Shown here piece by piece: positions 49,498-54,647 of a DNA stretch of 64,000 nucleotides; the first letter of the stretch is position 1, and every line of letters starts with the position of its first letter. Both the position numbers and the translations under genes were made by a program. The notes under the pieces are model-generated. The model saw only the letters and a list, made by a program, of their open reading frames with translations. It made no database searches and was not told where the DNA came from. Origin of the DNA: Spirochaetia bacterium (lineage in GTDB: Bacteria > Spirochaetota > Spirochaetia > UBA9216); assembly GCA_965140585.1 (NCBI GenBank), contig OZ223269.1, positions 128,001 through 192,000 of the forward strand, in the 5' to 3' direction.

Positions 49498-50640
49498 ATG
49501 GCCAGTCTATTTTTTGAAAACCCTATTCCCCAAACCGACCTTACAAAGCGTCTTCATGCCAGAGATCGAGATCTTCGATCGGCATATTTCCGTGATACCA
49601 CGGCAATTATTCACAGTTATCCATTCAGAAGGCTGAAGCACAAAACCCAGGTATTCTTTTCTCCCCATAACGATCATATATGTACCCGAATAGAGCATGT
49701 GATGCATGTAGCCTCGGTTGCTGCAACAATCTGCAGAGCTCTGGATCTTGATGCTGATCTTGCCTGGGCAATCGGTCTTGGGCATGATCTTGGACATACT
49801 CCCTTCGGGCATGTCGGAGAGACCATTCTTTCAGATCTGATGAAGGAGAAAGGCGGATTCAAGCATGAGATATATTCACTGCGGGTTGTAGACCATCTTG
49901 CAGGTTATGGAAAGGGCCTGAACCTTACCTACGCGGTCAGAGACGGCATTTTAAACCACTGCGGTGAAAAATTCGAGCAGTCAATGGTTCCTGATTTTAC
50001 TGTCAAAAATCTGTCAGAGATTAAAACCCGTGAGAATTATCCTGCATCCTGGGAAGGCGTTGTGGTGCGTATGTCGGATAAGATAGCCTATATGGGCCGT
50101 GATCTTGAAGATGCAATGCACCTGAAGATTATTAGCCAGGAAGATATTCCTGAAGATGTTACAAGGGTGCTCGGCAACAGCAACAGCGAGATTATCAACT
50201 CGATGGTAAATGATCTTATTGCTACTTCTCTGGAAACCGGCCGGATCGGCTTTTCTGATGACATTTTCAAGGCAATGCTTGTTCTTGTCGAGTTCAACTA
50301 CCGCAGAATCTATAAGAATCCTCTGCTTTCCACATATCACGGTTACTTTGAAAGGATGCTGAAGGTCCTGTTTGAATATCTGACTGACCTGTTCGAGAAC
50401 GGCGGTGAGAATACAGGGCATTACCGTTCTGAAAATAATTTTCTGGCAGCCCGATTCGGAGATTACTACCGGAAGATGAAAGACTTCTATCAGGAAGTCG
50501 ATGGTAATATGGATATGATTGTCTATGATTATATAGCCGGAATGTCAGATGATTATGCCATCAGCTGTGTGAATGAAATAATGGTGCCCAGGAAGTTTGA
50601 ATATCAGTTCACAGAGTTTCTTCTGCAGGAAGACTATTAG
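49498..50640 (+). CDS. dgt: dGTP triphosphohydrolase-like HD protein
   Basis: FRRLKHKTQVF, TRIEH, GHDLGHTPFGH, DYIAGMSD. Confidence 0.88.
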   Translation: MASLFFENPIPQTDLTKRLHARDRDLRSAYFRDTTAIIHSYPFRRLKHKTQVFFSPHNDHICTRIEHVMHVASVAATICRALDLDADLAWAIGLGHDLGHTPFGHVGETILSDLMKEKGGFKHEIYSLRVVDHLAGYGKGLNLTYAVRDGILNHCGEKFEQSMVPDFTVKNLSEIKTRENYPASWEGVVVRMSDKIAYMGRDLEDAMHLKIISQEDIPEDVTRVLGNSNSEIINSMVNDLIATSLETGRIGFSDDIFKAMLVLVEFNYRRIYKNPLLSTYHGYFERMLKVLFEYLTDLFENGGENTGHYRSENNFLAARFGDYYRKMKDFYQEVDGNMDMIVYDYIAGMSDDYAISCVNEIMVPRKFEYQFTEFLLQEDY

Positions 50641-51341: not shown

Positions 51342-51869
51342 TTAAACTAAAACTTCAGTAAAAAGTGACTTCAGTGAATCAACACTTGTGGCTCTGTAGA
51401 GCTCATTTCCGGATTCATCGATGAAGACAACAGTAGGTGATACAAAAATTCTGTATTTTCCTGCCAGTTCAAATCCTGATTTTTCATCTACATTAACTGT
51501 TTTTCCATTCATGTAGAAACCCTCAAGCCAGTTCTTTACGGGCGGACAGTTGGGACATGTAGTCCTGTAAAAGTAAATATATGAAGAAGGCTGAACTGAT
51601 GTTTCCTGCTGAAGGAAAGATGCGGGGCTCTGATCAGTGTATGTAGCAGTGCTGATAGCGGTTCCGGCGGCTTCTCTCACAGAAGGCTTGTCGGGCTGGG
51701 AAAAAAGTGTTCTGTGGTTGTACTCGTCTCTTTTACCCTTGTTCCAGTTCCTTACAGACCGGTAGTACCCTACAATCCTGGTATACACTTCGGTTTCGGT
51801 TCCCTTAACGGTCTGAAGCTTGTCCTTCAGTGTTCTGATTTCTTTTTCAATAGTCTCAATAGTTTTCAT
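51342..51869 (-). CDS. stand-alone NrdD glycyl-radical domain fused to a thioredoxin/glutaredoxin-like domain, 175 aa
   Basis: Own GGGAG RBS and ATG at 51869; EVYTRIVGYYRSVRNWNKGK Gly-radical loop; CPNC and a VSPT cis-Pro-like motif. Confidence 0.9.
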   Translation of the reverse strand: MKTIETIEKEIRTLKDKLQTVKGTETEVYTRIVGYYRSVRNWNKGKRDEYNHRTLFSQPDKPSVREAAGTAISTATYTDQSPASFLQQETSVQPSSYIYFYRTTCPNCPPVKNWLEGFYMNGKTVNVDEKSGFELAGKYRIFVSPTVVFIDESGNELYRATSVDSLKSLFTEVLV

Positions 51870-51882
51870 AATGTTCTCCCAG

Positions 51883-53997
51883 TTATCTGTTTTCTGCTCC
51901 CAAGAGCGATGATTTTTCTTTCTCAAGCTGTTCAATATTCTTTGCAATTTCCGCTTTTTCCTCATCAGCGCATTTCGGACAGTTGAAATGTTCGCCGTTA
52001 AGGTAGCCGTGCTTCGGACATACCGAAAATGTCGGTGATATTGTGAAGTAGGGCAGGTGGTAGTTGCTTGCGATACCTCTCACAAGGTTCATGCATGATT
52101 CCCAGTCATCAATTGCTTCACCGAGGAATCCGTGGAAAACCGTTCCTCCGGTATACTTAATCTGAAGTTCATCTTGCAGATCGAGTGCTTCAAAGATGTC
52201 GGTTGTAAAATCGACCGGAAGCTGTGAAGAATTGGTGTAGTATGGGTCGTCTGTACCTGCAGTGATGATATCCGGGTATCTCTGCTTGTCATGTTTTGCA
52301 AGACGGTAGCTTGTACTTTCAGCCGGTGTAGCTTCGAGGTTGTAGAGATCGCCTGTTTTTTCCTGATAATCAGCAAGTCTGTCTCTCATGAAATCAAGGA
52401 CCTCAAGTGCAAACTCTTTGCCCTCGGTATCAAGAATATCCTTCCCCATGAAGTTAAGCAGACACTCGTTCATTCCGCAGATACCGATTGTTGAGAAATG
52501 GTTGTTAAGATGTGACAGATAACGCTTTGTATAGGGAAAGAGTCCCGAATCCATCAGTCTGTTTACAACTTTTCTTTTCATTGAAAGCGATTCCGCGGCA
52601 AGATCCATAAGGTGGGCAAGTCTGCTGAAGAAATCGTTTCTTGAATTGGAGAGATATCCTATTTTCGGCAGGTTAATAGTGACAACACCTATCGATCCTG
52701 TGAACTCGTCTGAGCCGAAAAGGCCGCCGCCTCTTTTTCGAAGTTCTCTCTTGTCAAGCTGAAGTCTGCAGCACATTGAACGTACATCACCGGGGTTGAG
52801 ATCTGAATTGATAAAATTCTGAAAGTAGGGCGTACCGTATTTTGCAGTCATTTCAAACAGAAGTTTGGCATTAGGTGATGTCCAGTTGAAATTCTTTGTT
52901 ATGTTGTACGTAGGAATGGGGTATTGGAATCCGCGTCCGTTTGCATCACCGGTAATCATAAGCTCAATGAATGCCTTGTTGATTATATCCATTTCATCCT
53001 GACAGTCGCCGTAGGTGAAATCCATTTCCTTTCCGCCTACGATTGCAGGTTTATCCTTCAGATCGTCGGGTACTATCCAGTCGAGTGTGATGTTTGTAAA
53101 AGGTGCCTGACTTCCCCATCTTGAAGGTGTATTAACTCCGAAGATAAAGCTCTGAAGACCCTGTTTTACTTCCTTGTGTGACAGCTCATCAGCCTTTACA
53201 AAGGGCGCAAGATATGTGTCGAAGCTTGAAAGTGCCTGAGCTCCGGCCCATTCGTTCTGCATGATTCCGAGGAAATTTACTATCTGCTGAATCAGTGTTG
53301 AAAGGTGGGCTGCCGGCAGCGATGTGATCTTGTCCGGTACTCCGCCGAGTCCTTCCTGTATAAGCTGTCTGAGCGACCATCCGGCACAGTAGCCTGAAAA
53401 CATGGATAAATCATGAATATGAAAATCCGCGTTTCTGTGTGCTTCGGCTACTTCTTCCCTGTAGATATTTTTCAGCCAGTAGTTTGCTGTAATTGTACCG
53501 GAGTTATGCAGAATCAGGCCTCCCAGTGAGAAGTTGACGTTTGCGTTTTCATTTACACGCCAGTCAGACTGCTGCAGGTAGCCGTCCATGGTGTTGTTGA
53601 TGTCGAGCATGAGTTTCCTGGTGTCACGGATAACTTCATGTCTGGCACGATAGATTATGTATGCCTTTGCAATATCAACCTGTCCTGATTCAACAAGAAT
53701 GTGCTCTACTATATCCTGAATCTCTTCGATTGCAGGCGCAGAATTTGGGTGTCGTCCCTTCATGAATGATTTTAGCGCTGTTTCAACCCGGCAGGTCAGA
53801 TCTTCCACCAACTCAGGATTTTCAGATTCCTGAGCTGCAGAGACAGCCCTTCCGATTGCGCTTGCGATTTTCCATCTGTCATACTGTTCAATTTTTCCGT
53901 CGCGTTTGACTATTCGCCTTATTACCGCTTCAATTGCAGGCTTGTGTTCAACGCCAAGGAAATCTTTCCAGTCGTTTTCATTTTTACTGAAATCCAA
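51883..53997 (-). CDS. nrdD: class III ribonucleoside-triphosphate reductase catalytic subunit, lacking the Gly-radical loop
   Basis: ATP-cone IVKRDG, HIHDL, GYCAG, RSMCCRL, EATPAES, YYTNS, CPKH...CPKC; no RxxGY at the C-terminus. Confidence 0.95.
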   Translation of the reverse strand: MDFSKNENDWKDFLGVEHKPAIEAVIRRIVKRDGKIEQYDRWKIASAIGRAVSAAQESENPELVEDLTCRVETALKSFMKGRHPNSAPAIEEIQDIVEHILVESGQVDIAKAYIIYRARHEVIRDTRKLMLDINNTMDGYLQQSDWRVNENANVNFSLGGLILHNSGTITANYWLKNIYREEVAEAHRNADFHIHDLSMFSGYCAGWSLRQLIQEGLGGVPDKITSLPAAHLSTLIQQIVNFLGIMQNEWAGAQALSSFDTYLAPFVKADELSHKEVKQGLQSFIFGVNTPSRWGSQAPFTNITLDWIVPDDLKDKPAIVGGKEMDFTYGDCQDEMDIINKAFIELMITGDANGRGFQYPIPTYNITKNFNWTSPNAKLLFEMTAKYGTPYFQNFINSDLNPGDVRSMCCRLQLDKRELRKRGGGLFGSDEFTGSIGVVTINLPKIGYLSNSRNDFFSRLAHLMDLAAESLSMKRKVVNRLMDSGLFPYTKRYLSHLNNHFSTIGICGMNECLLNFMGKDILDTEGKEFALEVLDFMRDRLADYQEKTGDLYNLEATPAESTSYRLAKHDKQRYPDIITAGTDDPYYTNSSQLPVDFTTDIFEALDLQDELQIKYTGGTVFHGFLGEAIDDWESCMNLVRGIASNYHLPYFTISPTFSVCPKHGYLNGEHFNCPKCADEEKAEIAKNIEQLEKEKSSLLGAENR

Positions 53998-54012: not shown

Positions 54013-54468
54013 TTAGAATTTTAACTTTTTAATTTCATCGACAAACTGCTGAACATCGGCATATTTCCGGTACACTGATGCAAACCTTACATAGGCAACG
54101 CTGTCTATATTGTAGAGTTTTTCCAGTGCAAGTTCTCCGAGTGCTTCAGCTGAAACCTCATGGCTGCTTTTACCCAGCATATAGGCTTCGTCTTCTATCG
54201 ATGTCAGTATTTCTGCAACAGTTTCTGCAGGAACAGGACGTTTTTCCAGAGAGCGTTCCAGACCTCTTGCTATCTTGCTGATATCAAAGGGTTCCCTGAC
54301 TCCGCTCCTTTTAATAACCATCAGCGGCTGTTCCTCGATCCGTTCGTAGGAGGTGAACCTGTATGAACATGACAGACACTCGCGCCTTCTTCGGATTGAA
54401 TTGGCCGTTGCTGACTGTCTTGATTCCAGAACTCTGTCGTTATCTTCTCCGCATCGCGGACATCTCAT
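54013..54468 (-). CDS. nrdR: transcriptional repressor NrdR
   Basis: MRCPRC...ESR...IRRRREC..C..RFTSYE, AYVRFASVY. Confidence 0.97.
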   Translation of the reverse strand: MRCPRCGEDNDRVLESRQSATANSIRRRRECLSCSYRFTSYERIEEQPLMVIKRSGVREPFDISKIARGLERSLEKRPVPAETVAEILTSIEDEAYMLGKSSHEVSAEALGELALEKLYNIDSVAYVRFASVYRKYADVQQFVDEIKKLKF

Positions 54469-54521: not shown

Positions 54522-54580
54522 CCACTATATATAGTGCGTTATCCAATAGTCTGCCAATTTTATCACGCTATATATTGGGT
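54522..54580. promoter_or_regulatory. two NrdR boxes
   Basis: CCACTATATATAGTGC at 54522-54537 and ACGCTATATATTGGGT at 54565-54580 match acaCwAtATaTwGtgt. Confidence 0.85.
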
Positions 54581-54647
54581 GGCAATAGAAATTGTTAAGA
54601 AAATATTAATATATTGTTTGAATTTTAAGAGGGTGTATAAACACTTG

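Follow-up and report, generated by a model that had tools for sequence, protein, structure and literature searches.

The stretch of DNA analysed here (the window) comprises 64,000 nucleotides of a Spirochaetia bacterium (GTDB lineage Bacteria; Spirochaetota; Spirochaetia; UBA9216), corresponding to positions 128,001 to 192,000 of contig OZ223269.1 in NCBI GenBank assembly GCA_965140585.1. On its minus strand, a row of four genes was found in the order nrdR, nrdD, a small gene and nrdG. Glycyl-radical enzymes are defined by a radical glycine on the catalytic chain, and class III ribonucleotide reductase (RNR) is the textbook single-chain case, a separate radical subunit being known from class I. 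At this locus, the NrdD chain ends before its glycyl-radical loop and the loop is encoded by the small gene, followed on the same polypeptide by a linker and a predicted redoxin domain. Coordinates of all features are collected in Table 1.

Residues 150-685 of NrdD matched the Pfam family NRDD (PF13597) over profile positions 1-536 of 562 with 593 bits (cut-off 26.2). Similarly, the NCBIfam model NF006126 was matched over positions 3-662 of 684 with 1105 bits (cut-off 548). The closest solved structures were 8p23 (1.2e-40) and 4coi/4u3e (about 4e-38). In an alignment of NrdD sequences (A1), finger-loop residues M408, C409, C410 and R411 and metal-site residues C660 and C673 were nearly invariant. 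No Gly-radical motif was found after the metal site of NrdD, where 28 further residues precede the TAA stop codon. Examined as a member of its family, the protein shows the barrel above cut-off, the beta-A and finger-loop cysteines and a nearby NrdG, the loop in the same polypeptide being absent.

The missing segment was recovered from the small protein, residues 25-56 of which matched the last 31 NRDD positions (532-562 of 562; E 9.7e-8, 31.6 bits, cut-off 26.2). Besides NrdD and this protein, no other NRDD matches were found in the bacterium's own genome. In an alignment of 38 small-subunit sequences (A2), the block from G23 to R53 contained 17 invariant columns, and both the CPxC and the PTV cis-proline motif were conserved in at least 90% of the sequences. 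An AlphaFold2 model of the small subunit reached a mean predicted local distance difference test (pLDDT) score of 76.6. In this model a beta-hairpin is formed by residues 29-32 and 35-38 with G34 at its tip, linker stretch 71-90 remains below a pLDDT of 50, and the redoxin domain is folded as a beta-alpha-beta-alpha-beta-beta-alpha core with a pLDDT of 83-91. Using the model as a Foldseek query, 104 PDB matches were obtained at E<=1e-3, thioredoxins ranking on top. The A2 profile matched 1a8l, a protein disulfide oxidoreductase of Pyrococcus (7.5e-10), 1j08, 1fo5 (a Methanocaldococcus thioredoxin) and 7c10 and, more weakly, NrdH (1h75). Pfam listed only NRDD, Thioredoxin_2 and Glutaredoxin for the small protein, the single-sequence redoxin scores lying below the gathering score. 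As modelled, the C-terminal domain is of the thioredoxin fold, with a CxxC motif at the start of helix 1 and a cis-Pro loop, and reductase activity is predicted for it. No NCBIfam or Pfam model naming these small proteins was found.

In a mechanically generated list of open reading frames, the small frame begins further upstream, at an ATG within nrdD (51965), and measures 207 aa. The ribosome-binding site and the arrangement in relatives support the ATG of the 175-aa product as the start instead. A preliminary description of this DNA had stated that NrdD carries an ATP-cone, GYCAG, the SMCCRL finger loop and a CPKH...CPKC site without the Gly-radical motif, and that the missing loop, a linker and a CPNC redoxin are encoded 13 nt further on, behind a GGGAG ribosome-binding site and ahead of nrdG. 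All of these elements were located at the positions given, and the description was accurate in every detail.

Table 1. Features of the split nrdD locus. Positions are those of the window; residue numbers refer to the respective protein.
Feature	Position	Strand	Remarks
nrdR, 151 aa, opening the apparent nrdR-nrdD-small gene-nrdG cluster	54013..54468	-	TIGR00244, 176 bits (cut-off 124.65)
nrdD, large subunit, 704 aa	51883..53997	-	TTG start; TAA stop at 51885-51883
ATP-cone, aa 28-121	53635..53916	-	PF03477, E 9e-18
GYCAG, aa 202-206; C204 is the conserved beta-A cysteine	53380..53394	-	Aligned to the T. maritima NrdD cysteine; nearly invariant in A1
Finger loop SMCCRL, aa 407-412	52762..52779	-	Aligns with the T. 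maritima CCR loop
E555 codon	52333..52335	-	Aligned with T. maritima E495; nearly invariant in A1
Metal site CPKH-x9-CPKC, aa 660-676	51970..52020	-	Three Cys and one His
Helix-like C-terminal tail of NrdD, aa 677-704	51886..51969	-	In all split relatives, not in unsplit forms
Spacer between nrdD and small gene, 13 nt	51870..51882	-	CTGGGAGAACATT; holds the GGGAG ribosome-binding site
Small subunit gene, 175 aa and stop	51342..51869	-	ATG at 51869
N-terminal helix, aa 1-23	51801..51869	-	Helix 4-20 in AlphaFold2 model; hydrophobic spacing kept across A2
Glycyl-radical loop module, aa 24-56	51702..51800	-	RIVGYY at residues 31-36; G34 codon 51768-51770
Variable linker, aa 57-96	51582..51701	-	Length and sequence vary across A2
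Thioredoxin-fold domain, aa 97-175	51345..51581	-	CPNC 105-108 at 51546-51557; cis-Pro SPTV 144-147 at 51429-51440
nrdG, activase, 233 aa	50637..51338	-	TIGR02495 (NrdG2), 178 bits (cut-off 131)

The small protein was matched in 30 of 41 related genomes. A separate small frame directly following nrdD was present in 27 of these 30, with a redoxin in 26 of the 27, and the loop was located inside a long NrdD frame in the remaining three. The order nrdD, small gene, nrdG was kept in the 20 loci examined, one of which (L012) has no nrdD flank, and nrdG follows the small gene in all loci of relatives where the flank allows this to be seen. At the junction, an nrdD stop followed by a separate small-gene start was found in 19 of 19 loci with an nrdD flank (the window and 18 relatives). 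TAA, TGA and TAG all serve as the stop at this position, the spacing lies between -8 and +117 nt, and each of the three possible frame relations is represented. Because stops, spacings and frames vary in this way among relatives, an error or a conserved recoding is excluded. Programmed frameshifting or readthrough into one chain was likewise rejected: frame, spacing and stop vary, and each small gene has its own ATG. A split intein was rejected on size, the segments flanking the break being about 25 residues each; a general Pfam scan, with no dedicated intein test, showed no intein family in either protein.

Beyond the close relatives, 201 of 401 genomes in a sample of the phylum matched the small protein. 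In a shared protein collection, 1684 proteins of 96-307 aa matched it at E<=1e-3. Source names of these proteins include Treponema (oral and gut species among them), Marispirochaeta and Spirochaetales, and the proteins are variously labelled NrdD, glutaredoxin, thioredoxin or hypothetical. The junction was furthermore spanned by Logan contigs from two other studies with no indel at that site, one differing from the window at 71 positions (X2) and the other at 217 positions without gaps (X3). A further contig (X1) is identical to the window and may be its source. Selection was assessed from the proportions of nonsynonymous (pN) and synonymous (pS) differences in 10 pairs among five genomes of one genus. 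Since synonymous sites were saturated in most pairs (pS about 0.79), only pN against pS could be used, not a ratio of corrected rates (dN/dS). In the helix-and-loop part pN came to 0.10, in the linker to 0.29 and in the redoxin to 0.21.

The split is both ancient and conserved, and the small gene is under purifying selection. The idea that the split reflects an artefact or decay, be it a pseudogene, a sequencing error or a nonsense mutation of recent date, is favoured by nothing more than the occurrence of a stop codon within what is usually one gene. Against it stand the junction kept with varied stops, frames and spacings in 18 of 18 relatives' loci with an nrdD flank, the bridging contigs, a pN far below pS and the 1684 matching database proteins. 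Its probability is negligible, and both an assembly error and a recent lesion were ruled out by the varied junctions and bridging contigs. The two-gene split described from the window is shared by 27 of the 30 matching genomes, and its junction is confirmed in independent sequence data.

Inspection of the residues around the break revealed a further regularity. In the unsplit sequences inspected, the second CPxC is followed by a G and four residues and then directly by EVYTRIVGYY, with no helices in between. In the split forms inspected, NrdD runs on for about 25-30 helix-like residues after the metal site, and in the small protein the same EVYTR motif is preceded by an opening stretch of about 22 helix-like residues. 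Among the sequences inspected, the flanking helices are found right at the break and are restricted to split forms.

A model of the complex was calculated from alignments A1 and A2, yielding interaction prediction scores from aligned errors (ipSAE) of 0.78, 0.78 and 0.76, with 0.00 for the best of three controls. The mark applied to this score was reached by 58 of 80 solved complexes versus 2 of 110 mismatched pairs. The runs shared at least 74% of contacts, and the pLDDT of the partner was 67. Modelled contacts were made by small-subunit residues 2-18 with NrdD residues 676-699, at a periodicity of three to four residues, by residues 24-30 with ribbon strands 656-660 and 669-673, and by residues 31-37 and 43-58 with barrel segments. 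For the redoxin side (residues 59-175) no confident contact was named by the model, which is evidence in neither direction. Since NrdD structures with the loop in cis have been solved, the good score of the model may partly reflect memory. With that reservation, the model is compatible with the assembly of NrdD and small subunit that had been proposed beforehand: the pieces can be placed in the arrangement of an ordinary NrdD, the two additional helices pair up in the model, and the two proteins may bind each other.

Neither the break nor the redoxin is confined to the combination seen in the window. In a search for longer proteins, 48 matches were obtained, 24 of which measure 807-923 aa; those inspected were unsplit NrdDs with a C-terminal redoxin. 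Plain unsplit relatives of 711 aa also exist, one of them labelled Rectinema. Conversely, one genome (G039) encodes a 71-aa small subunit consisting of helix and loop without redoxin, all nine genomes of genus g36 carry Gly-only frames of 105-148 aa, and 176 proteins of 30-95 aa match the small protein, one being labelled Treponema pedis. Split and redoxin are therefore separable, as Gly-only small subunits and unsplit NrdD-redoxin fusions both exist. Among the unsplit forms, the radical motif of one NrdD (L046, G028:C122) reads VVGCL, with a Cys after the Gly where others have Tyr or Phe.

A second, mini type of split was found in other classes of the phylum. Here, a loop-less NrdD, about 50% identical to that of the window and with a different tail, is followed by a gene of 52-66 aa, whose product consists of just the loop and has neither helix nor redoxin; nrdG comes next. 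Loci of this type were found in other classes of the phylum (L048, L049, L053 and L055-L060) and on genome contigs (L062-L074, L077, L105, L118, L123 and L124). In two of them the small gene lies in frame after a TAA, preceded by a strong ribosome-binding site and starting with ATG.

From a scan of species-representative genomes 80 loci were kept, and the loop was located in a frame shorter than 150 aa in 30 of these, one frame being cut by a contig end. Half of the 30 adjoin an NrdD without loop, in records that include Leptospirales/Leptospiraceae, the cultured Thermodesulfatator autotrophicus S606, Thermodesulfobacteriota, candidate division TA06, Fermentibacteria, Syntrophotalea and Desulfuromonadaceae. 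Four others adjoin an intact NrdD, the frame adding a four-cysteine ribbon to the loop, and include Moranbacteria, Paceibacterota and Minisyncoccales; for the remaining 11, no NrdD was found within the locus. In these four loci of candidate-phyla bacteria (L081, L093, L107 and L125), the NrdD with its own loop is immediately followed by a frame of 95-97 aa holding the ribbon and a second loop, a protein that looks like a true spare part for class III RNR. Extra mini-loop genes were also observed away from any nrdD in G240 (L050 and L051), G197 (L052 and L054) and G054 (L061), amounting to three copies in G197 and four matches in G240. Proteins encoded next to them include a GmrSD nuclease and a TonB-dependent receptor, a TrbI conjugation protein, a DUF7666 protein and a radical-SAM protein.

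An NrdD tree was constructed from 66 rows by a quick method, five representative rows being long-branched and six rows untrimmed. All helix-type split NrdDs fell into one clade with a support of 99 in the Shimodaira-Hasegawa-like approximate likelihood ratio test (SH-aLRT). This clade also holds 15 unsplit forms with redoxin and four plain forms. Mini-type NrdDs were placed in two supported clades of the sister group, among unsplit forms. Their separate placement, together with the different anatomy, points to the split having arisen at least twice.

Whether the break confers any benefit is a separate matter. In a selectively neutral scenario, a helical hairpin would have been inserted between ribbon and loop, and a break within this hairpin would have persisted since the two parts can still come together, with no advantage of repair or exchange. 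Such a course would fit the position of the helices right at the break, their restriction to split forms, the intermingling of unsplit and split forms in the same clade, and the genomes that keep an unsplit NrdD beside a split one. It fits poorly with the occurrence, in another NrdD clade and in further phyla, of a helix-less split at this very position, with the extra unlinked copies of the mini protein in some genomes, and with ribbon-plus-loop proteins beside the intact NrdDs of candidate-phyla bacteria; on balance, a neutral split is regarded as rather unlikely. The recurrence of split and stand-alone loops suggests an advantage. It is proposed tentatively, with some odds against it, that class III RNRs repeatedly evolved a detachable radical cartridge, in the shape of the Spirochaetia zipper-plus-redoxin protein, the mini subunit (55-65 aa) of Leptospirales, Thermodesulfobacteriota and other phyla and the ribbon-plus-loop protein of candidate-phyla bacteria, which would constitute the first glycyl-radical spare-part or exchange system outside formate lyases. 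If this is true, aerotolerant anaerobes could re-arm an oxygen-hit RNR by swapping a small protein, and the Spirochaetia cartridge would bring along the reducing dithiol as well.

The source of reducing equivalents was considered in the light of published work on NrdD subtypes. According to the available text of Burnim et al. 2022 (PMC9669993), the SCCR NrdD of N. bacilliformis forms a disulfide that is reduced by thioredoxin, and a glutamate at the position of T. maritima E495 is proposed to be essential for formate-independent reduction and to act as the proton donor of thiol-dependent NrdDs. The same text states that 83% of double-cysteine NrdDs keep a methionine and appear equipped for either reductant. 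With M408, two adjacent cysteines and E555, the NrdD of the window belongs to this majority MCCR group. The double cysteine and the glutamate of the thiol-dependent subtype are present; the loss of methionine that marks the thioredoxin-only subclades is not. To take a CC finger loop as a sign of a redoxin and against formate, as claimed earlier, was therefore too strong, the combination of MCCR and E555 being compatible with either reductant in the accessible part of PMC9669993. Since the methionine before CC is kept, formate may be used as well.

With C204, M408-C409-C410-R411 and E555 all present, thiol chemistry is possible in this NrdD, judging from its residues. A thioredoxin reductase above its cut-off was found in the own genome. 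Because a thioredoxin-fold domain is covalently tethered to the loop, thiol-dependent turnover is the more economical reading, and we infer that the redoxin would be the turnover reductant of the split enzyme. Alternatively, the two-subunit enzyme may be real and its fused redoxin serve activation or maintenance, keeping the cysteines of the ribbon or the radical domain reduced for radical formation by NrdG, with formate as the turnover reductant. E. coli NrdD reportedly needs thioredoxin for activation via its C-terminal cysteines. This division of labour would be in line with the retained methionine, which is linked to formate chemistry, and with six pyruvate formate-lyase (PFL)-like glycyl-radical enzymes in the own genome as possible formate sources. 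It appears improbable: the double cysteine and the glutamate of thiol-dependent turnover are present and conserved, and the metal site here has only three cysteines.

Other RNRs of these genomes were examined as well. The own genome encodes, outside the window, a second RNR with a class I/II-type PF02867 match in a 746-aa frame (G000:C6:1139890-1141293). PF02867 was present in 6 of 10 related genomes checked. In the four without it (G277, G232, G339 and G312, all of genus g41 in the same class), an unsplit NrdD, in frames of 723-746 aa, was found alongside a split one that has a redoxin-bearing small subunit. An argument from essentiality was therefore abandoned: the own genome has its PF02867 RNR and the relatives have either PF02867 or a second, unsplit NrdD. 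As every genome checked has another RNR, activity of the split enzyme is not forced by essentiality.

Taken together, the locus is read as encoding a functional, obligate two-subunit class III RNR. Gene anatomy, conservation and selection were observed directly and assembly was modelled, and a probability of about 0.7 is assigned to this reading. Because the large subunit has no loop of its own, the small protein would be an obligate subunit and not a spare. Four points weigh against the reading as a whole. The redoxin is dispensable for the split, as seen in G039 and in 9 of 9 genomes of genus g36. The formate-linked methionine is retained in the finger loop, so that the redoxin need not be the reductant. 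In none of the genomes checked (the own genome and ten related ones) is the split enzyme the sole RNR. Finally, the 66-row tree does not order fusion versus split, its backbone support being 81-84.

For the obligate two-subunit enzyme, the following mode of action is proposed. The 704-aa NrdD would provide the allosteric cone, the barrel, the thiyl-radical finger loop and the metal ribbon, and the 175-aa protein would supply the glycyl-radical loop in trans. NrdG would use S-adenosylmethionine to generate the radical on G34 of the small subunit. According to the model, the latter may be held in three ways: by a strand added onto the metal ribbon, by the loop in the barrel and by an antiparallel helix pair, made of the last helix of NrdD and the first of the small subunit, both confined to split forms, which would zip the two sides of the break together. 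The CPNC thioredoxin-fold domain is probably tethered by a disordered linker of 25-55 residues. After each turnover this domain would re-reduce the active-site disulfide (C204 with C409 or C410) and would in turn be recharged by thioredoxin reductase or a similar donor. Cleavage by oxygen at the radical glycine would destroy the small subunit only, allowing its replacement. That oxygen sacrifices only an exchangeable part in this manner is plausible, by analogy and given the recurrence of the split.

With respect to the flanks of the cluster, the product of nrdR also matches the Pfam families Zn_ribbon_NrdR and ATP-cone. Upstream of nrdR, a weak promoter-like site was noted at 54585..54557. 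The numbers of promoter and terminator sites in the scan, this one included, were close to those in shuffled sequences, and the scan is uninformative for that reason. The product of nrdG, the dedicated activase directly downstream of the small gene, also matches Radical_SAM. On the plus strand, a dGTP triphosphohydrolase-family gene (49498-50640; TIGR01353, 172 bits, cut-off 152) runs towards nrdG, the ends of the two genes sharing four bases. A gene for a dNTP-degrading enzyme thus adjoins the dNTP-making operon.

A conserved class III enzyme with its radical on a separate small subunit blurs the contrast between class I and class III. It would offer a natural system for studying how the radical domain moves out of the barrel and back when NrdG activates it, whether subunit exchange can repair an oxygen-damaged enzyme, and by what route a thiol reductant reaches the class III active site. 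For annotation, the consequence is that these small proteins are named by no family model, carry inconsistent labels and would be dropped by profile-coverage filters.

In the full-text literature searched, supplements and RNRdb aside, no description of a class III RNR with its radical loop on a separate protein was found in the text available. Similarly, no separate radical-loop protein of class III RNR is described in the available parts of PMC2795772, PMC11226230 and PMC4390871. A 2018 RefSeq survey of redoxin-RNR fusions, in its accessible text (PMC6187632), reports a single grx::nrdD fusion; as hits had to cover at least 90% of the RNR profile, small subunits such as the present one would escape the survey.

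Compared with known systems, the split enzyme has the barrel, ATP-cone and finger loop in common with the canonical NrdD/NrdG pairs of phage T4, E. coli, Thermotoga maritima and Prevotella copri (1h78, 4coi/4u3e and 8p23). The metal ribbon, the sequence of the glycyl-radical loop and the adjacent radical-SAM activase are shared as well. It differs from them by a loop on a separate polypeptide, two extra helices at the break and an appended redoxin. An RNR split in two genes is reportedly also represented by class II NrdJa/NrdJb of Pseudomonas aeruginosa. As in NrdJa/NrdJb, the catalytic chain is in two pieces in phage nrdD genes interrupted by introns or homing endonucleases, of which the available text of PMC3653736 lists 6 nrdD cases in 128 phage genomes. 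Unlike the split in the window, these are interruptions by mobile elements, none being described in that text with separation of the radical loop or with a redoxin.

As a small stand-alone protein with a glycyl-radical loop for a large partner, the small subunit resembles GrcA/YfiD, by analogy only. GrcA/YfiD is the stand-alone glycyl-radical spare part of pyruvate formate-lyase. In contrast, the small protein matches NRDD, and its partner has no loop of its own. Membership of the GrcA family (PF01228) was rejected, the Pfam scan of the small protein having returned no PF01228. In the accessible portion of a 2026 review (PMC13450708), formate lyases constitute the sole class of glycyl-radical enzymes with identified spare-part proteins.

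With the thioredoxin-dependent NrdDs of N. bacilliformis and T. maritima, as far as described in the available text of PMC9669993, the enzyme shares the double cysteine and the glutamate aligned to E495; unlike in those, the methionine before CC is kept and the redoxin is tethered rather than free. The closest precedent is class I NrdB of Facklamia ignava, in which a glutaredoxin on the radical-bearing subunit was shown to be the RNR reductant (PMC6187632, available text). Unlike the spirochaete small subunit, that protein belongs to another RNR class, carries another type of radical and has its redoxin fused at the N-terminus, according to the same source. Among these systems, the two-piece NrdD is a variant of a known enzyme class with wide taxonomic reach.

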